A stretch of DNA of 64,000 nucleotides from a virus. Its lineage: Duplodnaviria; Heunggongvirae; Uroviricota; Caudoviricetes. Positions 2,223-51,298 of the stretch are shown piece by piece (position 1 is the first letter of the stretch; every line of letters starts with the position of its first letter). The notes under the pieces were generated by a model, which had not been told where the DNA came from, ran no database searches, and saw only the letters and a program-made list of their open reading frames with translations. The position numbers and the translations under genes were made by a program. Location of the stretch: positions 18,559 through 82,558 of the IMG/VR virus record IMGVR_UViG_3300032093_008018; one strand, written 5' to 3'.

Positions 2223-2909
2223 TTATATCCTATGGTAGTATTGGTAAAATGCTTCTGCGTATTCACAACGTGCTTCGATACCCCGGTATTTTGCCCAATC
2301 AAGCATGCCTTTACTAGACAAGTAGTTGTCTTGTGGACGCACTTGCGATTTAAAAATTTTAGCAAATGAATCAATTTTTTCTTGTACTACTTGCTCAGTT
2401 AATTCTACATATACATTCGGAGTGTCATAATCTGTTTTATATAACTTATGCACATACGTTGGGTTTTCCAGTATGTACATAGTCTTAGGACAGTAGTTAA
2501 ACGTTGGACGAGTTGCCGCTATCACTGCTTCATAGACAGTAGTGTGATCAATGTGAAAACTAGGACCCATGGTCATAATGATATCTGGCGTAATTTCCAT
2601 AATGGCATTTTCTACTAATTTGACTAGTTTAGAACGAGGAAACAAATCTAACTTGGAATCAAAGTCTAATGGCAATTGAAACTCGCCAGTTGTGGGACGT
2701 ACCCATGTACCATTAGCCCATTTAACAAATTGTTGATACTCTGCTAGACGTTCTTCTCTAGTTACAGTTTTGTGATGTAGTTCTATATCCGAAGCCGCAA
2801 CTAAACAAAAGTAAAAATCATACTGATCTCGATTCTTTAAAAAGAATCCACCGGCACCTATATAACTGTCATCACTATGCGGCTCAATTATTAGAACTTT
2901 TTGTTTCAT
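2223..2909 (-). CDS. PIG-L/LmbE family N-deacetylase
   Basis: N-terminal 'EPHSDDSYIGAGG' matches the (A)HPDDE..G.GG motif. A later 'HIDH' HxDH motif is also present. Confidence 0.65.
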   Translation of the reverse strand: MKQKVLIIEPHSDDSYIGAGGFFLKNRDQYDFYFCLVAASDIELHHKTVTREERLAEYQQFVKWANGTWVRPTTGEFQLPLDFDSKLDLFPRSKLVKLVENAIMEITPDIIMTMGPSFHIDHTTVYEAVIAATRPTFNYCPKTMYILENPTYVHKLYKTDYDTPNVYVELTEQVVQEKIDSFAKIFKSQVRPQDNYLSSKGMLDWAKYRGIEARCEYAEAFYQYYHRI

Positions 2910-3801
2910 TTTTATTCTCTTTAGTTAGCGGAATGTCTGCGGCACATGTACACCAGTCTCTAGTGCAATCAACAGGTTGATTGGGTACAGTAAAGGTGTC
3001 TTGATAGATATTACCTAAACTTCCACCAACACGGCAGGTAGCACGATGTACTTCTCCATCCCAATTGATCATGAGACTTTCGAGACCTGCATTACATTGC
3101 CATCCTTTGAATTGATTTAGATGTTGTTTGATTACATCGTTGGCATGAATGATCTGTTCATCGTCTATGCGGCAATTGGGTTTAGCTGTGGCATTCTTGT
3201 TTAATATCCACTCAAGATCTTGACCTTCGTATCTAAGATCATCAAACACATTGTGATCTCCTTCTGTCCAACGGATACGCCGTACAGCATATCTAATACC
3301 TAGTTCATCAAACTTTTTAACCACTGTACGAACACCGTGCATGTGTTTATAGTGTGCCATTACATTAACATGAAAGTCACGCTCAGTACTGTCATAAAAT
3401 TTCATTATATTATCAAATATTCTCATCCATTCCTGTTCAAAGTGCAGACTGAACACGATGTGATTATAAAACATTTCATGATTTAAATACCATTGATATC
3501 CTCTAGTTCCATTGGTAGTTAAGTTTACCCAAAAAATATCTTTACGTTTGAAATATTCTAATAAGTCTTCTATATCTGGATGCACACAGGGTTCCCCTCC
3601 CGTGAGGCTAATACGCAAAGGTTTACCTATTTCGCAGAGTCTATCTACGGCTCGTTCTAATAAATTTATATCCGTATGCGGACTAAAGTTATCATGTATC
3701 TCTGCAGGGCAATATGAGCAATCGTAGTTACAGCGTTTACCAAGATTCCACTCGATCTTGATTTGATCTTGATGTGGCCATACTGAGGTTATTTTATACA
3801 T
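2884..3801 (-). CDS. Radical SAM enzyme with C-terminal Cys-rich auxiliary (twitch/SPASM-like) region
   Basis: 'CNYDCSYC' CxxxCxxC near the N-terminus. C-terminal 'CTRDWCTC' cysteines. Confidence 0.75.
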   Translation of the reverse strand: MYKITSVWPHQDQIKIEWNLGKRCNYDCSYCPAEIHDNFSPHTDINLLERAVDRLCEIGKPLRISLTGGEPCVHPDIEDLLEYFKRKDIFWVNLTTNGTRGYQWYLNHEMFYNHIVFSLHFEQEWMRIFDNIMKFYDSTERDFHVNVMAHYKHMHGVRTVVKKFDELGIRYAVRRIRWTEGDHNVFDDLRYEGQDLEWILNKNATAKPNCRIDDEQIIHANDVIKQHLNQFKGWQCNAGLESLMINWDGEVHRATCRVGGSLGNIYQDTFTVPNQPVDCTRDWCTCAADIPLTKENKNETKSSNN

Positions 3802-5056
3802 AGGCAGTAAATTCCGGAGTCACTTCTTCAAATCGTTGTTCTCTTGTGACATCAAGTCTATGATTAAATTCTACGCAGTCTTTCCACAGATGGCTTTCGT
3901 CTTTAGAATTAAGAAAATTGATAACACCTTGTATTTGTCCCATAGTTAAATTATAAAGCATTGGATGTTCTTTTATTAATTTAAATTTTTCAATCCGAGG
4001 TTTAACATTTTCTAATCTTTCTATAGCTTGAGTTTTTAGTTCTGGAGGAAGTGTTTGAATAGATAGAACTTTAGGATACTTTACCATATTGGTATAGAAT
4101 ACGATTCCTAAATCATTTAAAAAGTATTCTATCATTTCATCCAGTATTAATACATTACTAATCTGTACAGCTACAGCGCCTACTATTCTACTGACATTAG
4201 GAATAGTCTGTATCTGTTTAATATTGTTAATTAATTCTGACCAACTTGCGTTTCCACGAATGTACTCATAACTTGAACCAATACCATCAATAGAAACATT
4301 TACAGCTACACTTTTAAATTTAGGCCAATATTCCCAAATAGTGCGATTGCTTTTACCTAAAATATTCAGGTTAGTGGCATACTTAATTTCTATTTGATTT
4401 CCGTAAGGAGCTAGCATATCTAGTATGCGATAATGCTGTGGATCCATTAGTGGTTCACCACCAGCAAATTCTACTCGTCTAAAGTAAGGAAGTAATTTTT
4501 TAAAAGAATTCCACCAGTTAGGATTATCCTCAAATTTATCCAAGTAGGGTTTGTTTATAAGATTAAGTTTTCTTACATTTTTAGAAATAAAATTTCCTTC
4601 TTTGTCGTAAAATTCCTCAACCTGTTTCCAATCATTCCAACTAGTGCTATCTGTAGGGTTGCACATTCGACATTTTAAATTGCAAAGATTATTCAATTTA
4701 ATCTCTATTGTTGGAATTTCGAAAGGCATTGTAAAATCTTGATCCATTTTCTTTAATGAATTAGGATAAAGATTAATACGTGCTTCTGGAATTTCTCCTT
4801 TAATGTGTCGCTGTCTTAAACTTTCAACCCCTTGATCTTCTAAACTAAAACAAGGTTCACACTCCGGAGGACGTTCTCCGTTTAAAACTTGTTTACGAAT
4901 GCGTCTCATAGTATCATTATTCCAATGATCTTCTAAAGAAGCATCTTGTATAAATCCAATAGGATAACTGCGACAACAAACTTTAATTGCGCCGTCTTCA
5001 CGTGTTGCTAATCCTGTAAAAGGATGCATACAAAATGTATTATGATTATAGTTCAT
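3794..5056 (-). CDS. Radical SAM enzyme, paralog of 96..1394
   Basis: 'CNLKCRMC' CxxxCxxC. Shares the N-terminal 'FCMHPF...GAIKVCC...NGERPPECEPC' module with ORF 96..1394. Confidence 0.75.
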   Translation of the reverse strand: MNYNHNTFCMHPFTGLATREDGAIKVCCRSYPIGFIQDASLEDHWNNDTMRRIRKQVLNGERPPECEPCFSLEDQGVESLRQRHIKGEIPEARINLYPNSLKKMDQDFTMPFEIPTIEIKLNNLCNLKCRMCNPTDSTSWNDWKQVEEFYDKEGNFISKNVRKLNLINKPYLDKFEDNPNWWNSFKKLLPYFRRVEFAGGEPLMDPQHYRILDMLAPYGNQIEIKYATNLNILGKSNRTIWEYWPKFKSVAVNVSIDGIGSSYEYIRGNASWSELINNIKQIQTIPNVSRIVGAVAVQISNVLILDEMIEYFLNDLGIVFYTNMVKYPKVLSIQTLPPELKTQAIERLENVKPRIEKFKLIKEHPMLYNLTMGQIQGVINFLNSKDESHLWKDCVEFNHRLDVTREQRFEEVTPEFTAYV

Positions 5057-5095: not shown

Positions 5096-5761
5096 ATGTT
5101 AACAAAAACTAACTATCAAGTTTCTTTAGATTTAATCGAAATTGCATTGAAAGAAATTCCCAGTGATAACTTTAGATATACAATCAATCAACCAACAGAT
5201 TCTTTCTTTTATGATCCTTGGAAAATTAAAGAGGAATTTAAAAATACTATTTGGGAATCTATTTTAAAAACAATCAATGAACCGATCGGTGAAGCTAGGA
5301 TAATAATTTTAGAACCTGGTAAATGTTACCAGGGACACGCTGATATAGATGATCGGTATCATCTAAATTTATGTTCTGATGAATCGTTTTTGATAGATTT
5401 AGAAAACAACGTGTTGTATAAGTTAACAACAGACGGATTTTGGTACAACATGAATGCCGGGATTAGGCATACAGCGATGAATGTTGGACGAGTCACAAGA
5501 ATACAATTAGTTGTTAGACAGTTATTAAAAAACAATATTCTTAAAAACAGCGTTCCGGTATGCATTAAGTTTAATGATATTACTGACGAACATGCGAGGT
5601 TTATTTTTGATGAGAAATTAAGTCCGTTATTAAATCATTTTGATAAGAGTGGGCTTATAAATAAGTTTGAGTATGGGAAAACATTTGTTAAATTTAATAT
5701 CGAAAAAGAATCTAAAGACACACTTAATAAAATGCTTCCAGAAAACTTTGAATTATTATGA
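5096..5761 (+). CDS. Asp/Asn beta-hydroxylase-like Fe(II)/2OG cupin (start moved to 'MLTKTNYQ')
   Basis: HxD...H pattern 'GHADIDDRYHLNL...RHTAMNVGRVTRIQL' resembles the Asp_Arg_Hydrox family. Confidence 0.45.
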   Translation: MLTKTNYQVSLDLIEIALKEIPSDNFRYTINQPTDSFFYDPWKIKEEFKNTIWESILKTINEPIGEARIIILEPGKCYQGHADIDDRYHLNLCSDESFLIDLENNVLYKLTTDGFWYNMNAGIRHTAMNVGRVTRIQLVVRQLLKNNILKNSVPVCIKFNDITDEHARFIFDEKLSPLLNHFDKSGLINKFEYGKTFVKFNIEKESKDTLNKMLPENFELL

Positions 5762-6402
5762 TAATATACACTCCCATTGATATTAAATGTAAAATTCCTG
5801 ATCAAGATTTACTCATAGAATATGTTAAGAAGAATTATTTGGATAAAAATATTATACCTAATGCTTTATTATGTCCATTAGTTGTTAGAAAGGCAGTGAC
5901 CGATTGGAGAGATGCTTCTCAAATTTTTACAGAAGATAAACTTCAAGATCTCACCGATAACGATCCAACTTACTATCGACCCGGAATCAAAGAATTAATG
6001 CCAGAATTAATAGAAATTTTAGAATCTTTGCCATTTAAACAAATTATCGGGGGAGGCCTATATCTTCAAACAGGTCCGGTCGATGCTCATCATGATATAA
6101 CTATTGACTTCACATATCCTAAAAGTCCGGAAAGATATAATGTTTTATTAACTCCTCATTACGATCAAGATTCTTTTTATATTGCAAAAGAGATAACTGG
6201 GGAAAAAATATATCCTAAGATATTAAAAGATTACCCAATTTATGCATTTAATGATCAGAAGATGTTTCATGGAGCAGATCCTGTTTTAGAAAATAGAGTC
6301 ATTATGATCTGTGCAGGATTGATAGATCATGAAAAACATGAAAATCTTATAGAAAGAAGTGCAAATAAATTTAAAGAATATGTAATAAGATATGAGGATT
6401 AA
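5758..6402 (+). CDS. Putative cupin/2OG-oxygenase-like protein
   Basis: 'VDAHHDITI' and 'KMFHGADPVLENRVIM' resemble the facial-triad and Arg motifs of its neighbours. 4-nt overlap with the upstream gene. Confidence 0.35.
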   Translation: MIIYTPIDIKCKIPDQDLLIEYVKKNYLDKNIIPNALLCPLVVRKAVTDWRDASQIFTEDKLQDLTDNDPTYYRPGIKELMPELIEILESLPFKQIIGGGLYLQTGPVDAHHDITIDFTYPKSPERYNVLLTPHYDQDSFYIAKEITGEKIYPKILKDYPIYAFNDQKMFHGADPVLENRVIMICAGLIDHEKHENLIERSANKFKEYVIRYED

Positions 6403-6948
6403 ATGTCAATTAAGTTTATAGGTAATTTTTTTGCAGGAAAATGGGATAGTATAATTGACTCTTTATGTATTGAAGAAGGCGATCGGAGAGCGTTTGGTGT
6501 AGACTTTTATAAGAACTTTGATGGTCGATTTGACAATAACATCCAAATGTTGATTGATGCGGGCTATAATAAAGTTGACACTGTTGAGTGGTTTAATTAT
6601 TATCCTATAAAACATTTTGATAATTCGTGTGTTATAGAATTTGAAAAATTTGTTGGAATGAAATGTGCTAGAGCATGGATTAGTAAAATACGTCCAGGAA
6701 AATATGCTCCAATACATCAAGACATCGATGATAACATTGAAGAATATCTATCTCAGGGAGAAGTAATTCGGTTCAGTACTTTTATCAGTCACCCTTATCC
6801 GGGAGGAGTTTTTGTTTGTAAAAATCAATGTTTTCATTGCGAACTTTCTGGTAATACATATCAGTGGGATCATTACTTAGATTATCATGCAGGTGGTAAC
6901 TGCGGGCTCCATGATCAATTTATGTTTCATTTTTTAGGAATAAAGTGA
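6403..6948 (+). CDS. Cupin-like protein ('W..HxGG' family), paralog of 6945..7508 and 22703..23506
   Basis: 'PIHQDIDD' HxD. C-terminal 'YQWDHYLDYHAGGNCGLHDQFMFHFLG' is shared with its paralogs. Confidence 0.4.
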   Translation: MSIKFIGNFFAGKWDSIIDSLCIEEGDRRAFGVDFYKNFDGRFDNNIQMLIDAGYNKVDTVEWFNYYPIKHFDNSCVIEFEKFVGMKCARAWISKIRPGKYAPIHQDIDDNIEEYLSQGEVIRFSTFISHPYPGGVFVCKNQCFHCELSGNTYQWDHYLDYHAGGNCGLHDQFMFHFLGIK

Positions 6949-7508
6949 TGGCCACATACATTGGAAATTCAAATAAAACAATGAAATGGGAAGATTTAAT
7001 AAATCATCTTAAATTAATACCTCCTAGATTAAGAGGAAACGATCAGGAAGATGATATACATTTAGGAAATCCCAAAGTAGAAAAACTAATTAAGATTTGG
7101 GAAAATGCAGGTTATGATAAAAATAATGCCGCAGCAAAATGGATTGATTATTTGCCTTATGAGCATTTTTCTAATGTATGGGTTGAAAATTTTTCTAAAT
7201 GGATAAATTGTGAACCTGCAGGCTGTTGGGTTAGTGCCGTTCCTCCAGGGTATATAGTTCCTTGGCATCCCGATTATAAGATGCCCAACCAGGAAAAAGA
7301 ATGGTTATCAAAAGGACCAATTGTTCATTATACTTGCTATATATGCGAGCCTAGCTTTGGTCAGGTATCAATAATTGAAAATCATGCTATATACGATCCT
7401 AAACAAGGAGATGTTTATCGTTGGGATGATTGGCAAAATTGGCATGGCGGACTGAATATGGGACTTGAAACAAAATATATGTTTAATTTCTTTGGATGGC
7501 AAAAGTGA
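6945..7508 (+). CDS. Cupin-like protein, tandem paralog of 6403..6948
   Basis: Alignable with 6403 ORF: 'AGYDKNNAAAKWIDYLPYEHF' vs 'AGYNKVDTVEWFNYYPIKHF'. C-terminal 'YRWDDWQNWHGGLNMG'. Confidence 0.4.
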   Translation: MMATYIGNSNKTMKWEDLINHLKLIPPRLRGNDQEDDIHLGNPKVEKLIKIWENAGYDKNNAAAKWIDYLPYEHFSNVWVENFSKWINCEPAGCWVSAVPPGYIVPWHPDYKMPNQEKEWLSKGPIVHYTCYICEPSFGQVSIIENHAIYDPKQGDVYRWDDWQNWHGGLNMGLETKYMFNFFGWQK

Positions 7509-8074
7509 ACACTAATTATGCTATCGATTTATCTATACCGATATCTCATCCGTTAGTAAACCCTGCTATATTAAATCAAACAGGCGACCAAACAGAAATA
7601 TGGTTTGCTAATCATAGTGACGTATCTGATGAGTTTCGATCCTGGCTTGATAGTTTAGGATTAGTAATAACTTATCCTCCTCTTATTTTTTACACACCTA
7701 AAGGCAAGCAATGCGGTATACACATTGACGGACATTCTCCTGACGCAGACCGTGCTGTTATGAATTGGTGTGTACAGGGTGCTGGTAGTATGATGCATTG
7801 GTACAAACTTAAAGAGGGCGAGCAACCATTTGAAACTACGGATACCCAAGCAGGTACACCTTACATACAATACCACCCTAACCAAGTTAATCATTTATAT
7901 TCTCACGTGGTTAAATGGCCTACAATCGTGCAAACTGGCATTCCACATAACATTCACAATAATGTTTGGGAACCGCGTTGGTTAATTAGTTGTGACATTA
8001 GTAGGAAAGAGAATCCAGAAGCGGGACTAACAATAGCAGAATCTTTAGAAATTTTTAAATCATGGATAGCATAG
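7496..8074 (+). CDS. Asp/Asn beta-hydroxylase-like cupin
   Basis: 'CGIHIDGHSPD' HxD. 'IPHNIHNNVWEPRWLIS' matches the family's distal His/Arg motif. Confidence 0.4.
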   Translation: MAKVNTNYAIDLSIPISHPLVNPAILNQTGDQTEIWFANHSDVSDEFRSWLDSLGLVITYPPLIFYTPKGKQCGIHIDGHSPDADRAVMNWCVQGAGSMMHWYKLKEGEQPFETTDTQAGTPYIQYHPNQVNHLYSHVVKWPTIVQTGIPHNIHNNVWEPRWLISCDISRKENPEAGLTIAESLEIFKSWIA

Positions 8075-8235
8075 AACAAGCACGTAAAATATTAAGATCA
8101 GATATACCTTGGTTAGAATTAGATATTTCTTTTAATGCAGATATCTGGAAACAACAGGCATTAGAAGCAGAGCCTCATTATCAAGAATATAGAGAAGGAT
8201 ATAGCTAAGGATGGGGCGGTTGTTGTTTACACGGA

Positions 8236-8709
8236 TTGGGTATTGATAAAACATACACTGCCGACAGGTATGGTTATAATGAATATCATGCTCCTTATCA
8301 ATATACTGATCTAGCATACAAGTGTCCTGTAATTACAGATTTTTGGAAGAATCAATTTCCTGCAGAAAGATATACAAGAATACGTTTTATGAAATTGGCA
8401 CCGTGGAGTAATATAAACTGGCACACCGACGGCGAGATTCCACTGGATATGGATCCATTATTATCTATTCTACCAATTAATATTGCTATAGCTCATCCAA
8501 ATAATTGCGAGATGTTTATAGAAGATAAGAAAGTTCCTTGGAAAGAAGGAAAGATAATTATGATCAATATAAGCAAAAAACATGCCGTTTTTAATCGTAG
8601 CAGTAAACCAAGAGTGCATATGATTGCTAACATTATATTGGGACATAGAACTGCCGAGTTTTGTGAAATGTTAGTAAGATGTTATAATAATCAATATGGT
8701 AAAATTTAA
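8236..8709 (+). CDS. Asp/Asn beta-hydroxylase-like Fe(II)/2OG oxygenase (TTG start; in frame after a 48-aa upstream ORF)
   Basis: 'NWHTDGE...W.EGK...KKHAVFNRSSKPRVHMI' matches the Asp_Arg_Hydrox pattern. Confidence 0.55.
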   Translation: MGIDKTYTADRYGYNEYHAPYQYTDLAYKCPVITDFWKNQFPAERYTRIRFMKLAPWSNINWHTDGEIPLDMDPLLSILPINIAIAHPNNCEMFIEDKKVPWKEGKIIMINISKKHAVFNRSSKPRVHMIANIILGHRTAEFCEMLVRCYNNQYGKI

Positions 8710-9805
8710 TACACCCGAAGGATCTTCAGATATAGTCTATATATTTTTGGACAGAATTAGTCAGTGCCAAACTAAATGGACTGCCGAATTGATGAGGAAC
8801 ATGTCGGATTATGTTCTTAGTAAGATTCTTGGTCACGGATTTAATATTATTCAAGGATTAGATGAAGATGCTATGTTACAAGAAGCCGCCAAAGAATATA
8901 CACATGCAGTTGTATTAAGTACAGGCACAGAGTTCATCAACGGTGATGAATTTTTCCATGAAGTCGAAAAGGAAGTCTACAGCGGCAAAGAATTTTTTAT
9001 CTGGGGTCATATACCAGATAGGGATGATGGTTATTATGAATTACACGAACAATGCTACATAATCAATCTAAAAACTTACAAAGAATTAGGTTGTCCTGTT
9101 ATAGGAAAATTTGAATATTATTCAGCTCATACACAGATAGCACCCAGACGCAGTGAAGAAAATATTCACGACGATTATACTCCTATCTGGGTAACCGGTG
9201 GCGATACCGAACGTCAATATAAACACAAATGGCACGGCTGGAACATTCTTAGTGTTGCGTTTGCTAATAATAAATTTGTGAAACCATTTGCAGATCGTTT
9301 CAGAAAAAACAAAAGATACTATTATCCTAATTATGAACCTGCGTTTATAAAATCGTGCGATTATCTATACGGCAAAAACGAGGTTGCCTCACAAACATTA
9401 TTCTATCCTTACAATACAGAAGAAGTTATAAAAATTAATTGTAGTACACCAATACAACAATTAGTAATTCAAGCAAGTGGATTGCAGTTTATAGAATATC
9501 TTTTAGAATATGGATATGATAAAAATACCGTTGTTCGTTTTGTAGATTATAATTTGTTTGCTTTAGAGTGTATGGAATATATTATAAAGAATTGGGACGG
9601 GTTGAATTATTTAGAATTTGTAAAAACGTATGTTAATAAAAGATCAAGTTTTTTAAAAAATAAAAAACAAGAGTGGATAACGTTAACTGGTGTTGAACAA
9701 CGGATTGATCCTGTAATTTGGAGTGACATTAGTAAAGTCGTTAAATTCGAATTTTCTCATCAAGATTTAGTTCTTAACAAAAATCTCGAAGTAAGCGATT
9801 GCTAG
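8696..9805 (+). CDS. Hypothetical protein
   Basis: 369-aa ORF with tight junctions to its neighbours. No motif recognised. Confidence 0.45.
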   Translation: MVKFNTPEGSSDIVYIFLDRISQCQTKWTAELMRNMSDYVLSKILGHGFNIIQGLDEDAMLQEAAKEYTHAVVLSTGTEFINGDEFFHEVEKEVYSGKEFFIWGHIPDRDDGYYELHEQCYIINLKTYKELGCPVIGKFEYYSAHTQIAPRRSEENIHDDYTPIWVTGGDTERQYKHKWHGWNILSVAFANNKFVKPFADRFRKNKRYYYPNYEPAFIKSCDYLYGKNEVASQTLFYPYNTEEVIKINCSTPIQQLVIQASGLQFIEYLLEYGYDKNTVVRFVDYNLFALECMEYIIKNWDGLNYLEFVKTYVNKRSSFLKNKKQEWITLTGVEQRIDPVIWSDISKVVKFEFSHQDLVLNKNLEVSDC

Positions 9806-10029
9806 ATGCAGTGCCTTCTACTATTGTGCATCTTAGTCATATTTTTAATTACGATCCCGTAGCACCTTTTGTTCCATTAAGACACAGAATATATAATGAG
9901 AATCTATTGTTCAAAAAAATTAAAGAATATAATCCCAATGCCATTATTGTTACTGTAAATAAGGCATCGGAGATTTATAAAGATTCACTTCCTTCGTGGC
10001 ACATGGATGGAGAGTGGAATGATCTATGA
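9799..10029 (+). pseudogene. Truncated fragment of an AspH-like cupin (N-terminal half only)
   Basis: 'LPSWHMDGEWNDL*' matches 'WSNINWHTDGE' of 8236 ORF, then stops. Overlaps the start of the next complete AspH-like gene in another frame. Confidence 0.35.
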
Positions 10030-10552
10030 CATAAACAAATTTATTTTTAAAGATAAAATTAATAAATTTATACCAAAATTAAAAAATGAATTTGTGACTG
10101 TTCACGGTTACGATACTGGTAACATTCCCCTCTACAGCGAATATATTGGAAACAGTTTAGATCCTCAAAATAAATGGAAAATGCTTGTAATTAAAATTAT
10201 GGGCAAATGGGAAGATAAAAATTTATCTCGATACCCAATATTAACTGAACTAGTTAAAAGTTTTGGTGATACTTGTCGTAGTGCAGGTTACAGTGTTTTA
10301 GACGCAGGCGGAGTTGTTCCGATGCACACTGATACAGAAGAAGGTCACGAAAATTATGTTATTTGTCACGTTCCTCTAATTATTCCTCTCGGAGATGTCG
10401 GATTCTCAGAAGGAGATTATCGAGGAAGATGGTTCGAGGGGGAATGTTTTTTATTAGATGTAGAAACTCCTCATTCGGTTTGGAATCACACATCATCTCC
10501 TAGAGTTGTTGTGTTATTAGAACTTCTTAAGGAAGATGTTTATGAAATTTAA
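10007..10552 (+). CDS. Aspartyl/asparaginyl beta-hydroxylase family Fe(II)/2OG oxygenase
   Basis: 'VVPMHTDTEEGHENYVICHVPLIIPL...RWFEGECFLLDVETPHSVWNHTSSPRVVVLLEL' matches the AspH domain. Confidence 0.7.
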   Translation: MESGMIYDINKFIFKDKINKFIPKLKNEFVTVHGYDTGNIPLYSEYIGNSLDPQNKWKMLVIKIMGKWEDKNLSRYPILTELVKSFGDTCRSAGYSVLDAGGVVPMHTDTEEGHENYVICHVPLIIPLGDVGFSEGDYRGRWFEGECFLLDVETPHSVWNHTSSPRVVVLLELLKEDVYEI

Positions 10553-11153
10553 TAATATAGCAATTACTGGTCATACCAGCGGGATTGGCAAAGGATTATA
10601 TGATTATTTTCTTAATTTAAATTGTAGAGTTAAAGGATTTAGCAAAGACAACGGTTTCGATATCGGTGATAGATCTAATCAAGATATTATTATTTCTTAT
10701 ACAAAAGATTGTGATTTGTTTATCAATAATGCCTATCATTATTATTCTCAAGTAGAACTAATGAAATTATGGCACCAACAACATTGGAATGATCCTCATT
10801 TTATTATAAGTACAAGTTCTATAGCTGCAGAACCATTAGCAGATATACCTAAAAATTTTCCATGGCTTAAAAACTACGGAGAAGAAAAATATGCTATTAA
10901 TAAAGTCAGCTGGGATATAAATCATAGCGGTAGTAAATGTAAAAGCATAGTTATTATGCCAGGTGTTTGTCAAACTAATTTTTATAATCCCTATGACACA
11001 GAAAATCAGAATGGTATAGAATTATATAATAAGGTAATGGATACCAATAGCATAATTACAATTGAAGATCTTACAAAGACTGTTGATTTAATTTTACAGA
11101 GTATCAATGGTAGAAACTTTATTTCAAGTATAACGGTACAAAATGGATATTGA
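10536..11153 (+). CDS. Short-chain dehydrogenase/reductase (SDR) family protein
   Basis: 'ITGHTSGIGKGL' TGxxxGxG Rossmann motif. 'NNAY'. 'YGEEKYAINK' YxxxK. Confidence 0.65.
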   Translation: MFMKFNNIAITGHTSGIGKGLYDYFLNLNCRVKGFSKDNGFDIGDRSNQDIIISYTKDCDLFINNAYHYYSQVELMKLWHQQHWNDPHFIISTSSIAAEPLADIPKNFPWLKNYGEEKYAINKVSWDINHSGSKCKSIVIMPGVCQTNFYNPYDTENQNGIELYNKVMDTNSIITIEDLTKTVDLILQSINGRNFISSITVQNGY

Positions 11154-11562
11154 CAATTGGATTGATCGTATTACCCAACCTAGAGATGAACTTGGTGGAT
11201 TTAGCATTTGTCCGTATGCTAAAGGTTCTAAGTATGAAATTATTGAAACTGATGGATCAGATATCGATCCACCTCCTTGGAATTTTGAGCTCATCATTTA
11301 TAAATTACCGAATGACTATTCCGAAGAAGAAATATTTAAAATTGCGAAAGAATATAACAGCATTTATCCAGAGATGGTTTTCTTACCAGATCCTAAAAAT
11401 AGAATAACCTACATTAATGGTATACAAACTAATAATGGAGAACACAATTTAATTCTGTGCCAGTGGAGAGACGAACTGAATAAAGCGAGAGATAAATTAT
11501 CTAAATCTAGTTATTATACGCACTGGAGTGAAGAATATTTAAAAGAGATTTTAGAAACATGA
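11143..11562 (+). CDS. Hypothetical protein
   Basis: 139-aa ORF with a 4-nt overlap to the downstream radical SAM gene. Confidence 0.4.
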   Translation: MDIDNWIDRITQPRDELGGFSICPYAKGSKYEIIETDGSDIDPPPWNFELIIYKLPNDYSEEEIFKIAKEYNSIYPEMVFLPDPKNRITYINGIQTNNGEHNLILCQWRDELNKARDKLSKSSYYTHWSEEYLKEILET

Positions 11563-13046
11563 ATCACGCATTAATTTTTTGTGTTCACGACTTGGCATTA
11601 AGGAGATTGGCAGGCCCATATAGGATAGCCACATTTCTTCGCGAACACGAATGGGATGTAGAGGTAATAGATTACGTTAAATCATTCACGCTAGAAGAAT
11701 TAAAAGAAGTAGCTAAAATGCGTATAAGTTCTAAAACTATTTTTATTGGTTTCAGTTCTTTTTTTAATGCATGGAGCGACGACGTTGATATTTTTATTGA
11801 CTGGATTAAATCTTCTTATCCTTACATTAGAATAATTGTAGGAGGACAAAGTAAACCTCTAATTAATACTAAAAAAGTCGATTACTATATTCACGGCTAC
11901 GGAGAATTAGCAGTATTAGAACTTGCCAGATCTTTTGTAGGAAATTCGAATAATAAAATAACCCTTGATCCGTTATATCTTGGAAAGAAAAAAGTTATTA
12001 GCGCAAATAAACATTATCCTGCTTTTCCTATGAATCGCCTCACAATAAAATATCAAGATCGAGATGATCTACAACCCTGGGAATGGTTGACGATAGAGTG
12101 CTCTAGAGGTTGTAAATTTCAATGTCCATATTGTAATCATCCGGTTCTTGGTGTTAAGGGAGATTATACTCGATCGGCAGAAGATTTTAAGGAAGATATG
12201 AAAGAAAATTGGGAAAGGTGGGGAATCAAAAATTACTACATGGCCGATGAAACTTTTAATGATCATAGTGAAAAAATAGAAAAATATTCAGATGCTATAC
12301 AACAATTAAATCTTGATACTATTTTTGCAGGATTTATTCGTGCAGACCTTTTAGTTTCTAGAAGAAGAGATTGGGAACCTTTATTAAAGATGGGATTTGT
12401 TGGACATTTTTATGGTATAGAAACTATGAATTATGAAACAGCAAAATTTATTGGAAAGGGAATGAGACCGGAAAAACTCGGAGATGGATTAATCGAAGTA
12501 AAAAATTATTTTTTAAGCAATGGTCCTTACAGAGGGGCACTCGGAATAGTAGTAGGACTTCCGCACGAAACATTAGAAAGTCAGATAAAAACTTTTAATT
12601 GGATTGAAAAAAATTGGCAAGGTGAATGTGTCCATGCATTTCCTTTAGAAATACACGGATCAGAAACTAATGATGTGCAATCTACTATATCAAAAGATAT
12701 GGGAAAATATGGGTATCGACATTCAGATATACCCGAGCCAGAACCTCCAGAGGAAGTCAAATTTTTTGGATCGGCCGAAACACGAGTGAAGCAAGCTAAC
12801 GATAAAGTTATATGGGAAAATGATAACATGACTTATGCAGATGCGTGTAAAATAGTCGATGACTTTTATGTTAAAATTGTAAGAGATGAGATTATAATGA
12901 AATCTAGCATCTGGACTTTTGCTGATTATACCTATCCCGATATTCCTCTTCAAGAAGTATTAGATAAAGTAAAATATTTTGATGCTCCTAAAAATCGAAC
13001 AGGTCCGAGAGAGCGAGAATATGTAGAAAAAAAGTTAAACAAATGA
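11559..13046 (+). CDS. B12-binding (class B) radical SAM enzyme
   Basis: 'SRGCKFQCPYC' CxxxCxxC after a ~180-aa N-terminal domain. Paralog of 20119, 26879 and 28482 ORFs (shared 'YYMADETFNDHSEK'). Confidence 0.75.
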   Translation: MNHALIFCVHDLALRRLAGPYRIATFLREHEWDVEVIDYVKSFTLEELKEVAKMRISSKTIFIGFSSFFNAWSDDVDIFIDWIKSSYPYIRIIVGGQSKPLINTKKVDYYIHGYGELAVLELARSFVGNSNNKITLDPLYLGKKKVISANKHYPAFPMNRLTIKYQDRDDLQPWEWLTIECSRGCKFQCPYCNHPVLGVKGDYTRSAEDFKEDMKENWERWGIKNYYMADETFNDHSEKIEKYSDAIQQLNLDTIFAGFIRADLLVSRRRDWEPLLKMGFVGHFYGIETMNYETAKFIGKGMRPEKLGDGLIEVKNYFLSNGPYRGALGIVVGLPHETLESQIKTFNWIEKNWQGECVHAFPLEIHGSETNDVQSTISKDMGKYGYRHSDIPEPEPPEEVKFFGSAETRVKQANDKVIWENDNMTYADACKIVDDFYVKIVRDEIIMKSSIWTFADYTYPDIPLQEVLDKVKYFDAPKNRTGPREREYVEKKLNK

Positions 13047-14083
13047 TTTATACTAATTGGGATCCGCTTAAAGAAATTATAGTAGGTAACTGTTTTGTTG
13101 ATCATAGTCGAAATAAATTATCTCAAATTTTTATCGAAACTAAAGAAGATTTAGATAATCTAGCAGACTATTTGATTAAAATGGGAATTAAAGTATATCG
13201 TCCCGATGTAACCTATTTTAAAGAAGATATTGATCTAAGCAATTTTAAAATTAAATATGCAACTGCTCCTATTGTTCCCCGAGATCAATATCTAGTTTAT
13301 GGAAATACCATCTATCAAACATATACTAGTATGCCTGATAGATATTTAGACAGCATAAATTACACACATATTTTTAAGGAATTTTTTGATAGAGGTTATA
13401 ATTGGATAAGCATGCCTCCACCAAAATTAGATACACTAGTAGATAGATGGTGGGCAAACGGTGAATATGTCTATCACGAGCAATTAAAGAATCAAGTTCT
13501 ATGGCATACAGCTACAATGTTTAAGTGCGGAGACAAATTAATTACTAATATCAAAGGACCGGGAAATACTCTTGGACTCGAATGGATGAAACGTAATCTT
13601 CCAGAAAATACTATTATTGATGCAGGCAATACACATCAGAAAGGTTTTGGACACATAGATCACGGATGGTTTATGACTAACGATGATCTAATTTTTTGCG
13701 TAAACAAAACTTGGGTACCAGAACCGTTGCATAATAAGCAGATAGTAGAGCTACAAGATCATTTTGAGAAATTCGACGATACAAAATTTATCAATGACTA
13801 TCGAAACACAACAGGCAAATTTAGTGATGCTTGGATCGATAAGTGGCTAACCGAATGGAAAGGGTATGCACAAGAAGTGTTTTTTGATAGTAATGTTTTA
13901 GTTATTGACAGCAACAATATTTTATTCAGCAATCATCAGCCCGGTATTTTTAAAGTCATGGAACGTTACAGCATTAACTGTCATGTAGTACCACAACGCC
14001 ACGGATTATTCTGGGAAGCAGGAATCCACTGTTTAACTTTGGATCTATCTCGTGAGGGTAGAAATCGATCTGTAATCAGTTAA
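13043..14083 (+). CDS. Amidinotransferase superfamily enzyme (AGAT/StrB1-like)
   Basis: C-terminal 'FWEAGIHCLTLDLSREGR' resembles the catalytic-Cys segment recalled for glycine amidinotransferases ('GGFHCWTCDVRRRG'). Confidence 0.55.
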   Translation: MIYTNWDPLKEIIVGNCFVDHSRNKLSQIFIETKEDLDNLADYLIKMGIKVYRPDVTYFKEDIDLSNFKIKYATAPIVPRDQYLVYGNTIYQTYTSMPDRYLDSINYTHIFKEFFDRGYNWISMPPPKLDTLVDRWWANGEYVYHEQLKNQVLWHTATMFKCGDKLITNIKGPGNTLGLEWMKRNLPENTIIDAGNTHQKGFGHIDHGWFMTNDDLIFCVNKTWVPEPLHNKQIVELQDHFEKFDDTKFINDYRNTTGKFSDAWIDKWLTEWKGYAQEVFFDSNVLVIDSNNILFSNHQPGIFKVMERYSINCHVVPQRHGLFWEAGIHCLTLDLSREGRNRSVIS

Positions 14084-15229
14084 GGCTTGTAAAAATCGAT
14101 ATTCAATGTCTTCAAACCAATCGGAAGGTGCATCGAGAGGAATAACAAACAAAACTCCAGTTCCACCTTCGTTCCACATTCCGGCATTAATCCCATATTG
14201 ATATAAAAATCTTTCAAATGTACTGTCCATGGGCTTTTCGTTTAGTAATACTAGATTAAATAAAAGTCCATAATTATTATAATCCTTAATTAATTCTTTG
14301 TCTTTAAATCGCTGACACATTAATTTCCCCCATCTTTCTAATTTAGGTTGATTAATTAATAACTGTTCTCGATCTAATATATTCATATATTCTAATGCAG
14401 AATAAATCCCACTTAGATTGAAACTGTAACTAAAGCCATGCACAAAAACATCATATTTAATTTTATCAAATATTTTTTGATTAGCACAAACGGCACTGAG
14501 AGGAAAATAACCTCCGGTTAATGCTTTACCCATTGTAAAAATATCTGGAATTATTCTTCCAGTCCAACCAAAAAAAGAACCAGTCTTTCCTCCGCACACG
14601 GCGATGTCATCAACAATAAGAACTATATTTTTGCGAGTGCATTCTTCTCTAAGCCCGTTCCAAAAGTTTTCACCAGGATCGTATAATCCGTTTTGCCAAC
14701 TGGCAGTTTCTACAACTACGGCACATAAATCTTCAGTAATCATCTCTAAGTTGTAATCGCTGATGACACATCTTGAATCTTTTCCGAATACATCTGTCAT
14801 ATAAGTAGCATCACTGACACTGCTACTTAAAAATGTACTTCCATGATAAGATTTTCGAAATCCCAAAAATTTATTTTTTTTGTTATACATTTGAGCTAAC
14901 CTTAGTGCTCCTTCGATCGCATCGCTTCCACTCAATGCAAATGCACTTTTGTATCCTCCGCTCATTTTACTAATTCGATCGGTTAATTCTAACACAGCAT
15001 CATTTGTTGTGTAGAATTCTCCGCCGCAAAATGGATTATTGATCATTCTAAGAGATACGAAATCAATAATGTCTTTTCTTTTAAATCCTAGGGGAAAACA
15101 ACCGCAGGCACCCAAACTTAGATCTAAATACTGATTACCATTTTCGATAAACCCATAGTCAGTATATTCTTCTATTTTACGAATCGGTTGTTGATTATTT
15201 TTTGAATAGGGAAATATAATATTGGTCAT
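14045..15229 (-). CDS. Class III PLP-dependent aminotransferase
   Basis: 'VDDIAVCGGKTGSFFGW' matches 'DEVxTGxGRTG'. 'MGKALTGGYFPLSAV' carries the PLP Lys. 'GSDAIEGALRLA'. Confidence 0.8.
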   Translation of the reverse strand: MTNIIFPYSKNNQQPIRKIEEYTDYGFIENGNQYLDLSLGACGCFPLGFKRKDIIDFVSLRMINNPFCGGEFYTTNDAVLELTDRISKMSGGYKSAFALSGSDAIEGALRLAQMYNKKNKFLGFRKSYHGSTFLSSSVSDATYMTDVFGKDSRCVISDYNLEMITEDLCAVVVETASWQNGLYDPGENFWNGLREECTRKNIVLIVDDIAVCGGKTGSFFGWTGRIIPDIFTMGKALTGGYFPLSAVCANQKIFDKIKYDVFVHGFSYSFNLSGIYSALEYMNILDREQLLINQPKLERWGKLMCQRFKDKELIKDYNNYGLLFNLVLLNEKPMDSTFERFLYQYGINAGMWNEGGTGVLFVIPLDAPSDWFEDIEYRFLQALTDYRSISTLTR

Positions 15230-15875: not shown

Positions 15876-16478
15876 ATGCCAACTAAAGAAATTTTTCCCA
15901 TACTGATTCATACAGCAGAGTATTCTGGAGATATTAAACAACTTCAGAATATGTTATTCCCTAAGATACAACCGTGGTTTGAAGAAACCAAAAAGAATAA
16001 TCAATCGAGCATACGCGGAAAAGGTATATGTTCATATAACATAAAACGAGATTTAAATTTAGATCCATCCTTTATTGAATTAACTGAATTTATAAACAAA
16101 GAAGCAGGAACATATTGGAACAGATTAGGATATAGTAAATCAGGTAAACCAGGTGTTTATGAAATGTGGGTGAATCGATACGAACAAGAATCATTTATTG
16201 ATATGCATAATCATAGTCCTATACACATGACTGCTAGTTTTTATCTTCAGCATCCTACAAATGGTGGAAATATTATATTCGAACATCCCAATGCTATCTT
16301 GCTAAAACACCAGCCATATGATTTTGATCAAATGCGTTACAAATCATTTGAGCAAGAAATTACCGTGAAAACAGGAATGTTAATAATATTTCCCGGGTAT
16401 ATAAATCATAAAACTCAACCCAATCTTTCGAATGAAGATAGAATTATTATAGGATCCAATATATGCAACGTCATTTAG
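15876..16478 (+). CDS. 2OG-Fe(II) oxygenase superfamily protein (TIGR02466-like)
   Basis: 'HNHSPIHMTASFYLQHP' and 'INHKTQPNLSNEDRIIIGSNI' match the pattern of a family common in marine phages. Confidence 0.55.
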   Translation: MPTKEIFPILIHTAEYSGDIKQLQNMLFPKIQPWFEETKKNNQSSIRGKGICSYNIKRDLNLDPSFIELTEFINKEAGTYWNRLGYSKSGKPGVYEMWVNRYEQESFIDMHNHSPIHMTASFYLQHPTNGGNIIFEHPNAILLKHQPYDFDQMRYKSFEQEITVKTGMLIIFPGYINHKTQPNLSNEDRIIIGSNICNVI

Positions 16479-17101
16479 AACCAGAAATAATGAATGAAAA
16501 AAATCAAGTATTGGCGTTTCATCACGGTAGTAGAGATTATGGAATCAAGGGATTTCTTGACTTTTATAAAAAATATGTCAATCTCAAAAAAGGTAAAGTA
16601 GTCGATTTGGGATGTGGTACTGGATCGTATCTATTTGCATTAGAGACGCAATATCCAGACCTATTAATAACCGGCTATGACGCGAGTGAGTATATGATAG
16701 AACTTGGACAAACTATTGTAGAAAATATCAGTAGTGGAGTACGATTAAGATGCGAATATTTTAAAAATGTTAAAGATTCTGCTGATTGCGTAATATCAAC
16801 TAATACACTTCATCACATACATGATTCTAATATTTTTTGGAACTGTGTAAAGAATATTTCAAACAATGTATTCATTATGGATTTGGTTCGTCCTAAAAAC
16901 AAAGATATTGCAAAAAAAATTGTTGGTCAATTGGCTGAAAAAGATAGCGAATTATTTAAAAACGATTATTACAATTCGCTCTTAGCAGCATTCAATGCCG
17001 ACGAATTAAGACAGCAGATTTTAGATACAAAATTAAATCTAATTATCGAGGGAAATACTGATTTTCTACAAGTAGCAATTATATATGGCCAAATACAATA
17101 A
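16463..17101 (+). CDS. Class I SAM-dependent methyltransferase
   Basis: Motif I 'VVDLGCGTGSY'. Acidic residue 'GYDASEYM'. 'ISTNTLHH'. Confidence 0.7.
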   Translation: MQRHLEPEIMNEKNQVLAFHHGSRDYGIKGFLDFYKKYVNLKKGKVVDLGCGTGSYLFALETQYPDLLITGYDASEYMIELGQTIVENISSGVRLRCEYFKNVKDSADCVISTNTLHHIHDSNIFWNCVKNISNNVFIMDLVRPKNKDIAKKIVGQLAEKDSELFKNDYYNSLLAAFNADELRQQILDTKLNLIIEGNTDFLQVAIIYGQIQ

Positions 17102-18146
17102 AATTAAAAATATACAAATTGAAACTAGCACGATTTGTAATGCTGCCTGTCCACAATGTCTCAGAGAATGGTACGAAGGAGATCATAGCTTTTTTAAACA
17201 AACTTATATCCCAACAGAATTCTATGAAGAAAGAATACCAGATCAAATTTATAATGATTTAGAAAGAATAAATTTTTGTGGAACAATGGGAGATCCGTGT
17301 GCGGCACCTAATTTTATAGATGTTTGCAGAATAATAAAAAAGAAAAATCCGAATATAAAATTAACTATAGCAACAAACGGAGGATTGAGATCCGTCGAAT
17401 GGTGGAAAGAATTAGCATCTGTATTAGATCGGACTGATATAGTTATTTTTGGCATTGACGGGCTAGAAAATACAAATTGGATTTATCGAGTAAATGTGAA
17501 GTGGAATAAATTAATGGAGAATGTGAAAGCATTTATTGATGCAGGCGGACATGCCTGGTGGCAATTTATTGTTTTTAAACATAACGAAAAACAAATTGAA
17601 GAAGCTAGAAATTTTTCTCAACAAATGGGATTTAAGAATTTCTTTACTATCTATAATAATAGATTCTTTGTTGAAGAACTTTTTGGAAGAGAAACGTTTG
17701 GTGCCGACGGAAAAAGATTAGAACCTCCAACCATAGAAGAAGAAAAATCAATACTGCTAAAACTTGATAAAAAATCAACTGAAGAGTGGGGAGAGAATTC
17801 CGAGAAGTCTTGTATAAAATGTCAGTCATTAGAAAAGGACGAATTATACATTGATGCCGACACACATCTATTACCGTGTTGTTTTATAGCAGGCGCAAAA
17901 TTTACATTGAACCCGACAGATCCGGACGGGTACTATAAATTATGGACAACCTACGGAGGAGATAAGTTAAAATTATCTTCGCACAACTGGAATGATATTT
18001 TAAACAGTGAATTTTATCTAGAACTAGAAAGGAGTTGGACTAAGAAATTTTCAGAAGGAAGATTGCTTGTTTGCTCCGGAGCATGTTCAGTTGACTTGGA
18101 TGCAAAATTTACCTTATATGTAAACACAAAAGATGCAAAAATATAA
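17085..18146 (+). CDS. Radical SAM/SPASM-domain enzyme (anSME/PqqE-like architecture)
   Basis: N-terminal 'CNAACPQC' CxxxCxxC. C-terminal 'CIKCQS...LLPCCFIAG...CSGACS' SPASM-like cysteines. Confidence 0.75.
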   Translation: MAKYNKIKNIQIETSTICNAACPQCLREWYEGDHSFFKQTYIPTEFYEERIPDQIYNDLERINFCGTMGDPCAAPNFIDVCRIIKKKNPNIKLTIATNGGLRSVEWWKELASVLDRTDIVIFGIDGLENTNWIYRVNVKWNKLMENVKAFIDAGGHAWWQFIVFKHNEKQIEEARNFSQQMGFKNFFTIYNNRFFVEELFGRETFGADGKRLEPPTIEEEKSILLKLDKKSTEEWGENSEKSCIKCQSLEKDELYIDADTHLLPCCFIAGAKFTLNPTDPDGYYKLWTTYGGDKLKLSSHNWNDILNSEFYLELERSWTKKFSEGRLLVCSGACSVDLDAKFTLYVNTKDAKI

Positions 18147-18885: not shown

Positions 18886-20126
18886 CTCCAGCATATATTT
18901 TTTATTCTCTAAACATCAACGGAAAATTAATTGTTTCGGCAAAAGACATTGACGGAAATGATATTTTTACAGATAACATAATAAGTGAAAAAATAAAACA
19001 ATTATCCACTAACGTATCTGTTATTGTTTTTAATATGTTTAGCGGATTTTCTATTGACATCCCATCGACTATCCTTAGAGATTTAGAATTTATTAAATCA
19101 TTTAAACATCATATATTTTTTCATGGAATGGAACCCGCGGTTAAACTTATTGAAGATAGAATTATTGAATCTCCAGAATATCAGCCAGTATATGAATTTT
19201 TAACTGTTTATCATAATCTTGTTACTCCAAATACATTAGAGTATATTGACAATGATTTTTCAATTAAATCAAGTTTTAGAAAATGGGCTAGAGCTTTAAA
19301 GACTAAACCTAAATTTGCAGTATCTTGTGTTGACAACCTATTGTACGGAAAAGTTCTATTAAATTTTACAATGTTATTTTTTAAATCTTCTTCTGATCCA
19401 GAAATGTTTTTTAGAACAACATTCCAAGAAATTAGGAAACAATACCGCCACACACATTTATTCAACTCTTTTAATAGACAGCGTCGCTGGAATAGAGAAT
19501 TAATATTTTACCTACTGTGGAAAAATAATCTATTAGACGATGGAATTTTATCCATGCATCAAAAAAATTATAATTTAAGATTTTTAAAAATATGTGAAAA
19601 ATTTAATTTAAATGTCTCTGAGGAAGAATTAAATCAAATTAATAAACTTCTTCCTATTAAGATAGACAATTTAGAAATACCAAATTTTAAATTAACCCAC
19701 GGTACGCACGAATATTTTGTTTCAAATTTTTACAATGATCAAATGTTTATGGCGCCGATTAATGTTGTCACTGAGACCTTTTTTGTTCAAAATATCATAA
19801 CACACAGTGAAAAAATTTTAAGACCTATTTTACTAGGGCAAATTATCTTACCTTTAGCTACATATAATCTATGCCATGCTTTGGAAGAAAAATTTAATTT
19901 TAAATTTTCAAAATCAACATTAGAAATTGATAAAATTAAAGATCCAGTTGAAAGAGCAAATGCAGTTATTAAAAAATTAATTTTTTTTAAAAATGATCAA
20001 AAATCACTATATCAGGAATTAGATTATGTTAATGATAACTATAATCATAACCTTGATATGATTCTGCTAAATTCTTCAGATAACATATTATTAAATATTA
20101 AAAAGTTAGTGAAAAAATATGTTTAA
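18873..20126 (+). CDS. Hypothetical protein
   Basis: 417-aa ORF. No motif recognised. Confidence 0.45.
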   Translation: MEPMTPAYIFYSLNINGKLIVSAKDIDGNDIFTDNIISEKIKQLSTNVSVIVFNMFSGFSIDIPSTILRDLEFIKSFKHHIFFHGMEPAVKLIEDRIIESPEYQPVYEFLTVYHNLVTPNTLEYIDNDFSIKSSFRKWARALKTKPKFAVSCVDNLLYGKVLLNFTMLFFKSSSDPEMFFRTTFQEIRKQYRHTHLFNSFNRQRRWNRELIFYLLWKNNLLDDGILSMHQKNYNLRFLKICEKFNLNVSEEELNQINKLLPIKIDNLEIPNFKLTHGTHEYFVSNFYNDQMFMAPINVVTETFFVQNIITHSEKILRPILLGQIILPLATYNLCHALEEKFNFKFSKSTLEIDKIKDPVERANAVIKKLIFFKNDQKSLYQELDYVNDNYNHNLDMILLNSSDNILLNIKKLVKKYV

Positions 20127-51217: not shown

Positions 51218-51298
51218 ATTTTTCTCCTTAAAAAGTAAGAATTTAATGAGCACTGAGCTCGTTACAATTAGCCCATTGGGTGCTAATTGCGTTTTTAT

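Follow-up and report, generated by a model that had tools for sequence, protein, structure and literature searches.

A conserved cassette of small, probable Fe(II)/2-oxoglutarate oxygenases encoded by a putative large tailed phage

The IMG/VR virus record IMGVR_UViG_3300032093_008018 (Duplodnaviria; Heunggongvirae; Uroviricota; Caudoviricetes) carries, within the stretch of 64,000 nucleotides analysed here (positions 18,559 to 82,558 of the record, hereafter the window), a crowded set of small genes which probably form a conserved cassette of single-domain Fe(II)/2-oxoglutarate (2OG) oxygenases of 180–270 amino acids, each fulfilling a distinct, non-redundant role in a tailoring pathway. Ten oxygenase genes are housed in 18 kb, nine being AspH/Cpz10-like and one, 15876, a member of PF13759 (genes are named by the first position of their open reading frame (ORF); Table 1). 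Six of them are consecutive and are followed by a gene for a 444-residue non-cupin protein and then by 10007. Plus-strand ORFs were confirmed at 5096, 5758, 6403, 6945, 7496, 8236 and 10007, and from 5096 to 14083 consecutive genes of the same strand abut or overlap by 4–23 nt in an operon-like manner. A preliminary description of this DNA had reported a tandem array of seven to eight Asp/Asn β-hydroxylase-like genes, with more copies at 15226, 15876 and 22703. The run of six genes and 10007 stand, as do 15226 and 22703 on the basis of motifs and profile links; however, the 444-residue protein gene intervenes in the array, ORF 9799 is not a copy, and 15876 is of a different family.

The encoded proteins (181–267 amino acids) consist of a single domain and share a set of putative ligands. 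Every named ORF contains an H-x-D motif, a distal His and a basic residue 9–13 positions further on, with the exception of 6403, in which the basic residue is replaced by glutamine (Gln172). The basic residue is an Arg at +10 from the distal His in 5096, 7496, 8062 and 10007, a Lys at +10 in 6945, and an Arg at +9 in 5758, +11 in 15226 and +13 in 22703. The HxD/E…H…R signature on which the preliminary description relied is thus present with that single exception, yet it is of little weight by itself, as the loose pattern occurs in 24 of the 88 ORFs of the window against 17.2 ± 3.2 in shuffled sequences, which is close to chance, and the case has therefore been built on other tests. A stricter pattern, HxD…H-x3-N-x4-6-[RK], is matched by seven ORFs where 0.6 would be expected, six of the seven being candidates. 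ORF 62296–62829 (minus strand) was rejected as a further copy, since it encodes a 2-Cys peroxiredoxin (FTFVCPTE motif) that fits the strict pattern by chance. When the paralogues and their homologues are aligned, the H-x-D…H metal triad is seen in all nine genes and is invariant or at least 90% conserved (alignments of 7–108 homologues). Loss of the metal ligands, which would have spoken against the family, is therefore not what the alignments reveal: these positions are invariant or at least 90% conserved across 56–108 homologues per family, and only the basic 2OG-binding position, in 6403, departs from the expected arrangement.

Three genes of the array are recognised directly. PF05118 (Asp_Arg_Hydrox, gathering threshold 22.6 bits), the AspH family that includes human AspH, LpxO and OlsC, is matched above threshold by 10007 (E 1.3e-21, 77.5 bits) and by the 8236 ORF (E 1.7e-13, 51.2 bits), the alignments covering only the catalytic core of AspH, with its H…R(+10) segment. 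A joint profile of both (A1) matches the catalytic domain of human AspH (5apa) with E 1.9e-7, aligning the HT(D/G) and H…R segments. The match of 5096 to PF05118 is weak and below threshold (E 0.0038, 17.5 bits), while its family profile (A7) matches Cpz10 (PDB 7V4F/7V4O/7V4P) with E 1.9e-17 and with the ligands aligned. Cpz10 is a 182-residue α-ketoglutarate-dependent β-hydroxylase of caprazamycin biosynthesis, in which H115, D117 and H160 form the triad and R170 binds 2OG (PDB 7V4F/7V4M-P), and its authors placed it nearest to the aspartyl/asparaginyl β-hydroxylases (PMC9814697). The start of 5096 is backed by four of six aligned homologues (contigs L001, L002, L083 and L089), the ORFs of the other two (L084 and L085) reaching further upstream, matching an ATG at 5024 of the window. 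Searches of the single proteins of the array against Pfam, PHROGs and NCBIfam recognised just 8236, 10007 and, weakly, 5096; as single proteins 5758, 6403, 6945, 7496, 15226 and 22703, six of the nine cassette genes, have no match to PF05118. Membership at the family level thereby appears detectable in 5096, 8062/8236 and 10007 alone.

None of these proteins corresponds to AspH proper, LpxO or OlsC. AspH proper (the EGF-domain Asp/Asn β-hydroxylase, EC 1.14.11.16) is characterised by a tetratricopeptide repeat (TPR) domain and an H-x-G site, unlike the cassette proteins, which are of a single domain, harbor neither the TPR domain nor a membrane anchor, and have H-x-D throughout. Similarly, the NCBIfam equivalogs for OlsC and LpxO score 10007 at 32.9 bits (cutoff 450) and 17.6 bits (cutoff 500), respectively, and 8236 at 13.4 and 12.9 bits, all far under the cutoffs.

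The remaining AspH/Cpz10-like genes belong to families without a Pfam model. The paralogues 6403 and 6945 share 30–32% identity (BLASTP E ~1e-26; shared alignments A3/A4) and belong to a family of 89 members, none with a Pfam domain, in which H105, D107, H162 and N166 (6403 numbering) are invariant across 85 sequences. The 7496 family has 115 members without a Pfam domain, with H76, D78, H151, N155 and R161 invariant across 63 sequences, and PF05118 is matched by none of the 63 members scanned. AlphaFold (AF2) models of the 6403/6945 and 7496 families are confident, with a predicted local distance difference test (pLDDT) of 94.6 and 94.1. In both models the DSSP assignment puts H-x-D at the close of one strand and the distal His on a later one, after which the next strand opens with the Arg or Lys position. 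Such strand placement is the layout expected for the 2OG oxygenase fold. A double-stranded β-helix (DSBH), or cupin, fold is thus predicted for these two families. PDB profile searches with 7496, 6403/6945, 15226 and the 444-residue protein returned nothing significant.

The families of 5758, 22703 and 15226 show the same pattern of conserved residues. In 5758, for which none of 91 homologues has a Pfam domain, H111, D113 and H171 do not vary, and only Arg or Lys is seen at position 180 (56 sequences). The 22703 family comprises 326 representative clusters, and H, D, H and R are each at least 90% conserved in 108 diverse members (alignment numbering one lower); PF05118 is weakly matched by eight of these 108 members, and no other Pfam family by more than one. 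Homology between the families of 5758 and 22703 is seen by hhalign (97.6%, E 3e-12). In 15226, H122, D124, H191, K201 and R202 are invariant across eight homologues; neither Pfam nor PDB gave a match, and ten scanned family members yielded nothing useful; a scan of ten members from divergent clusters was likewise without useful result. Sequence searches of Pfam, NCBIfam, PHROG and PDB gave no match for the 5758, 15226, 22703 and 6403 families, and cluster look-ups returned no product names.

These families can be joined by profile comparison. ORFs from 36 viral loci were pooled and clustered; in the network obtained by comparing cluster profiles the families are connected via intermediate clusters from more distant phages, the best cupin-control pair reaching only 9.4%. 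Linked clusters were then merged into clans for hhalign. The AspH/Cpz10 clan is linked to the 6403 clan at 95.7% (E 9.7e-9), to the 7496 clan at 93.5% (E 2.4e-7) and to the 5758/22703 clan at 82.9% (E 9.2e-6), and the 7496 clan to the 15226 clan at 96.0% (E 4.1e-9), whereas no clan exceeded 3.7% against six control families of non-cupin neighbours. The family of 15226 joins the superfamily only through the 7496 clan. In addition, hhalign places all four positions (H, D, H and basic) of the orphan copies collinear with those of the 6403 and 10007 families. The nine genes may accordingly be viewed as long-separated and strongly diverged members of a single superfamily centred on AspH/Cpz10 (PF05118), the links for 5758, 22703 and 15226 being good but short of conclusive, because the alignments were pooled from iterative searches. 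The Asp/Asn β-hydroxylase likeness claimed in the preliminary description is borne out in this sense by PF05118 in 8236 and 10007, by Cpz10 for 5096 and by the clan links, although the relation is mostly very remote. As for 15876, it is a full-length match to PF13759 and links to no other clan (hhalign ≤3.4%), hence it was set aside as an AspH-like copy.

The order of the cassette is well conserved. The arrangement 5096-(5758)-6403-(6945)-7496-8236-[444-residue gene]-(10007) recurs across 15 viral contigs (L096–L110), with 5758, the second 6403-type copy and 10007 variably present; 5758 is carried by eight of 16 related loci, the window included. Orthologues are 45–86% identical, whereas the closest paralogue pair (6403/6945) is only ~32% identical and most paralogue pairs have no significant BLAST match. 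The retention of gene order in 15 contigs indicates that the paralogues are old and individually conserved rather than recently expanding. The set is an old and stable one of distinct enzymes, and the suggestion of a diversifying family is not upheld. More distant phages carry other gene combinations. In one such contig (L118, IMGVR_UViG_3300021519_000071) the stretch ~5200–14900 contains roughly ten small genes of the 7496-type clan, arranged in tandem and spread over the two strands.

One part of the cassette is visibly damaged, although not the part first proposed. The preliminary description had taken ORF 9799–10029 for a truncated cupin copy keeping a SWHMDGE metal motif. Intact homologues of 439–444 residues precede the 10007 homologue in every related locus, and their last ~76 residues align with ORF 9799–10029, ending WHMNGDWNGL*; SWHMDGE is thus the natural end of an unrelated protein, and the fragment is the frameshifted C-terminus of the 444-residue non-cupin gene. 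DNA alignment reveals a 1-nt gap in the window, with a G after 9800 present in L090, L091, L093 and L094, four contigs whose identity to the window exceeds 99.5% once their own deletions are set aside. Searches of Pfam, PHROG, NCBIfam and PDB gave no match to the 444-residue protein. The genuinely damaged oxygenase copy is 8062–8709. This gene truly begins at the ATG at 8062, the ORF finder showing just 8236–8709, and is broken by an in-frame TAA at 8206–8208 where L091 has GAA and where homologues of 214–237 residues read through. Over 6.5 kb L091, which comes from another sample, differs from the window in three places: T/G at 8206, G/A at 8215 and the extra G after 9800. A recoded stop at 8206 was rejected, as all other ORFs are normal with code 11 and the near-identical contig has GAA. 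Further deletions, different from one another, occur in the same gene pair in near-identical contigs from other samples, L090 lacking ~8251–8403, L093 lacking 8584–8816 and L094 lacking 8717–8817, while L091 is intact, likewise L092 and L095 (96.8% identical). The deletions in L093 and L094 have a common right breakpoint. These lesions represent either recurrent inactivation, as real population variants, or an assembly artefact; in the former case near-identical natural variants would constitute different natural knock-outs of one gene pair.

Table 1. Coordinates of the oxygenase genes, their neighbours and other features of the window
Feature	Position	Strand	Residues or evidence
Putative Cpz10-like Fe(II)/2OG β-hydroxylase, 221 aa (amino acids)	5096..5761	+	H81, D83, H125, R135
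Orphan oxygenase-like gene, 5758/22703 clan, 214 aa	5758..6402	+	H111, D113, H171, R180
Predicted 2OG-oxygenase-fold protein, 6403/6945 family, 181 aa	6403..6948	+	H105, D107, H162, Q172
6403 paralogue, 187 aa	6945..7508	+	H108, D110, H167, K177
Predicted DSBH oxygenase-fold protein, 7496 family, 192 aa	7496..8074	+	H76, D78, H151, N155, R161
AspH-family (PF05118) oxygenase gene, 215 codons, interrupted by TAA	8062..8709	+	H121, D123, H174, R184
444-aa non-cupin protein gene, split into ORFs 8696–9805 and 9799–10029	8696..10029	+	1-nt deletion after 9800
AspH-family (PF05118) oxygenase, 181 aa	10007..10552	+	H107, D109, H156, R166
Amidinotransferase, end of co-directional block	13043..14083	+	profile A12: HsvA (5wpi) E 1.9e-27, StrB1 (1bwd) 1.2e-25, also AGAT, SxtG
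Class-III (omega) aminotransferase	14045..15229	-	PF00202 E 2.4e-40; NCBIfam BioA/ArgD-type below cutoffs
Probable DSBH oxygenase, 15226 family, 210 aa	15226..15858	-	H122, D124, H191, R202
2OG-Fe(II) oxygenase, PF13759 (2OG-FeII_Oxy_5)	15876..16478	+	E 4.4e-16, 59.5 bits (threshold 27), full-length match
Oxygenase-like protein, 5758/22703 clan, 267 aa	22703..23506	-	H177, D179, H233, R246
Nine radical S-adenosylmethionine (SAM) genes in 30 kb	96-1394, 2884-5056(-), 11559-13046, 17085-18146, 20119-21912, 24740-25819, 26879-30038		
DnaK	49304-51253	-	~66-80% identity to DnaK of Burkholderiales/other Betaproteobacteria
Phosphate-selective porin O/P and PstS-like phosphate-binding protein	59194-60606 and 60659-61684	-	host-like genes

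Following the chemistry of the family, each enzyme would coordinate Fe(II) by its H-x-D…H triad, located on strands II and VII of the double-stranded β-helix, would hold the C5 carboxylate of 2OG by the Arg or Lys that opens strand VIII, and would, with O2, hydroxylate a C-H bond that is not activated. The oxygenases would carry out distinct oxidations, each at its own site or on its own substrate, in a phage-encoded tailoring pathway. Its target may be a small metabolite of the amino, guanidino or nucleoside type, or else a peptide or a constituent of the cell envelope. Homology, the fold of two families, the conservation of the ligands, synteny and the lesions are shown by the analysis, whereas we infer that the enzymes are catalytic, that they share a pathway and what class of substrate they act on. 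The distinctness of the oxidations is suggested by the separate conservation of the paralogues in fixed order, their packing with an amidinotransferase, and their aminotransferase, methyltransferase and nine radical SAM neighbours. The size of a bare catalytic core, together with the relationship to Cpz10, favours a small-molecule target, with a peptide, protein or envelope target as the main rival. Several hydroxylations of one substrate, as the preliminary description proposed, would be plausible.

The neighbouring genes are of a kind that would suit such a pathway. The amidinotransferase at the end of the co-directional block is undetected by Pfam at E ≤ 0.01 and is recognised by its profile, and an omega-aminotransferase, a short-chain dehydrogenase/reductase (SDR)-like protein and a SAM methyltransferase are encoded nearby. 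Two of the nine radical SAM proteins have a twitch domain and score above the NF033640 cutoff, four belong to the B12-binding type (one KedN5-like) and three are further members; one of the nine has an HMPTM-type zinc ribbon. It is conceivable, if somewhat doubtful, that the 30-kb island as a whole encodes a multi-step biosynthetic or hypermodification pathway, in which the nine paralogues oxidise different positions of one scaffold to yield a heavily hydroxylated, methylated guanidino/amino compound, peptide or envelope component. Counted towards this pathway would be the amidinotransferase, the omega-aminotransferase, the SDR-like protein, methyltransferases, the nine radical SAM proteins and the ten 2OG oxygenases. 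Were this true, a natural-product-like pathway would be present on a large phage, including three enzyme families absent from curated libraries.

Several observations weigh against a cassette of distinct, functional AspH/Cpz10-like oxygenases. Of five contigs sharing >99.5% identity outside the deleted segments, four carry a damaged 8062/8696 pair, so that at least this part looks dispensable. Codon 6916–6918 of 6403 encodes Gln172, in place of the Lys that is presumed to bind 2OG and is found in 77 of the 85 family members; Gln occurs at this position in six of the 85, the five others besides 6403 showing an HDQ or similar variant. By fold comparison 6403/6945 lie nearer to the prolyl/lysyl hydroxylases and PiuC than to AspH; the likeness to the AspH family, when taken gene by gene, holds for 5096, 8236 and 10007, but not for 15876 and less well for this pair. 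Compared with prolyl/lysyl 4-hydroxylase-type and PiuC-type 2OG oxygenases themselves, there is no sequence-level match, and 6403 differs by its Gln at the 2OG-binding position. With regards to the remote links, single-family hhalign comparisons made prior to clan pooling reach 13–48% to other clans. Shallow alignments (3–13 sequences) link just 6403/6945 and 10007/8236, and deeper single-family profiles give matches of motif length only, the strong links appearing after clan pooling; as the clan alignments pool iteratively gathered sequences, the links may be inflated, though the controls are low. The genes 5758, 15226 and 22703 were assigned from motifs and profile links alone. Finally, no precursor peptide, nonribosomal peptide synthetase/polyketide synthase (NRPS/PKS) or glycosyltransferase was found.

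The foremost alternative, which appears unlikely though it deserves consideration, is that the cassette encodes strict AspH-type protein hydroxylases acting on Asp/Asn or further residues in proteins of the phage virion or of the host, or in a peptide made by the ribosome, with the twitch and B12 radical SAM proteins serving as peptide maturases, as they do for heavily modified members of the ribosomally synthesised and post-translationally modified peptides (RiPPs). The membership of 8236 and 10007 in PF05118 and the closeness of the 6403 fold to protein prolyl/lysyl hydroxylases are consistent with such a role, as are the two twitch proteins passing NF033640 and the weak matches of several B12 radical SAM proteins to RiPP C-methyltransferase models. 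Furthermore, AspH is a core gene in pelagimyophages, which carry radical SAM cassettes in a host-recognition island (PMC7029224). Against this, the proteins have no TPR or other substrate-docking domain and are bare cores of 180–220 residues similar to Cpz10, and their motif is H-x-D where animal AspH has H-x-G. The island is also fully packed, its only unassigned small ORF (21893–22150) being without obvious core-peptide features, and an amidinotransferase together with an omega-aminotransferase suits small-molecule chemistry better.

A further alternative holds that several orphan copies (5758, 15226, 22703 and 6403, the last with its Gln172) are cupins without catalytic activity or proteins of another fold, their motif being coincidental. 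The near-chance frequency of the loose motif would allow for this, as would the lack of any Pfam, NCBIfam, PHROG or PDB sequence match for these families, the missing basic residue of 6403, and the fact that 5758, 15226 and 22703 were judged from sequence. This alternative is nevertheless quite improbable, given that not only the metal ligands but also the basic position are invariant or at least 90% conserved over 56–108 diverse homologues, that the clan links reach 83–96% against at most 3.7% in the controls, that all four positions are collinear with those of the 6403 and 10007 families, and that PF05118 is the sole Pfam family matched repeatedly by the 22703 family. It is still less probable that the genes act independently of their neighbours, by draining or sensing host 2OG or in AlkB/TET-like nucleic-acid repair or modification, as has been proposed for cyanomyophages with one to five small 2OG-Fe(II) oxygenase genes per genome (PMC3037559), for despite the host-like stress and nutrient genes of the window (PstS, phosphate porin and DnaK), nine separately conserved paralogues in fixed order fit a generic 2OG sink poorly, the best structural and sequence relatives are amino-acid-type carbon hydroxylases (Cpz10, AspH, prolyl/lysyl) and not AlkB or TET, and the genes are tightly coupled in translation to biosynthetic-type enzymes.

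Of the auxiliary genes of large aquatic phages that still lack an explanation, those for small 2OG oxygenases are some of the most frequent, and the window is an unusually dense case. In T4-like cyanomyophages multiple small 2OG-Fe(II) oxygenase genes are found, with 2OG modulation or DNA repair as proposed functions (PMC3037559), while in pelagimyophages AspH belongs to the core genes and a variable island holds the radical SAM cassettes (PMC7029224). These large aquatic phages resemble the present case in having several small (~180–255 residues) 2OG oxygenase genes, often in variable regions with radical SAM cassettes; they differ in that here ten genes occur in 18 kb, six of them consecutive, with the order kept over 15 contigs and with an amidinotransferase and an aminotransferase adjoining. 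The density of the cassette, its conserved order, the three orphan families as relatives of AspH/Cpz10 and the amidinotransferase and aminotransferase context appear to be new. These orphan families (~90 to >300 sequence clusters each, with no Pfam model) would represent hidden AspH/Cpz10 relatives. The amidinotransferase, aminotransferase and radical SAM context points to a defined pathway as opposed to generic 2OG consumption. Should the cassette build or decorate a specific molecule, phages would be shown to carry long tailoring pathways and would supply compact hydroxylases with distinct specificities; should it make no specific molecule, the correction in annotation of many metagenomic proteins would remain useful.

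Some additional features of the island merit description. The ORFs 22141–22716 (minus strand) and 23515–24219 (plus strand), which flank 22703, are mutually homologous, in that iterated searches recover the same 14 ORFs, although the BLASTP match is weak (E 0.1); each is represented by conserved orthologues at related loci, and neither matches a database entry. ORF 25816–26169 (minus strand, 117 residues) was considered as a candidate S-adenosylmethionine decarboxylase (AdoMetDC)-like proenzyme; phmmer against PDB sequences found nothing, and the candidate was left unconfirmed.

The enzyme genes crowd the first 30 kb of the window, with the remainder on the minus strand. Along the window the G+C content ranges from 28 to 41%, and no tRNA genes were found in its 64 kb. 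Megablast of 5–15 kb against isolated phages gave no match, nor did tblastn of 10007, 7496 and a 626-residue ORF against the same, and a DnaK-based scan of genome contigs showed ~70% identity to Burkholderiales DnaK but found no related locus. Many IMG/VR viral contigs, the largest of them 352 kb long, contain syntenic relatives, and the exact protein encoded by 10007 recurs on 19 metagenomic contigs, of which the longest falls in the 0.2–1 Mb class. On the basis of membership in IMG/VR and of BFVD matches to ‘uncultured Caudovirales phage’, the source is treated as a large uncultured tailed phage. The minus-strand remainder also encodes a D-Ala-D-Ala carboxypeptidase and an SPFH protein, and the host-like genes found there (DnaK, porin and PstS-like protein) hint at a Gram-negative host, possibly a betaproteobacterial one.

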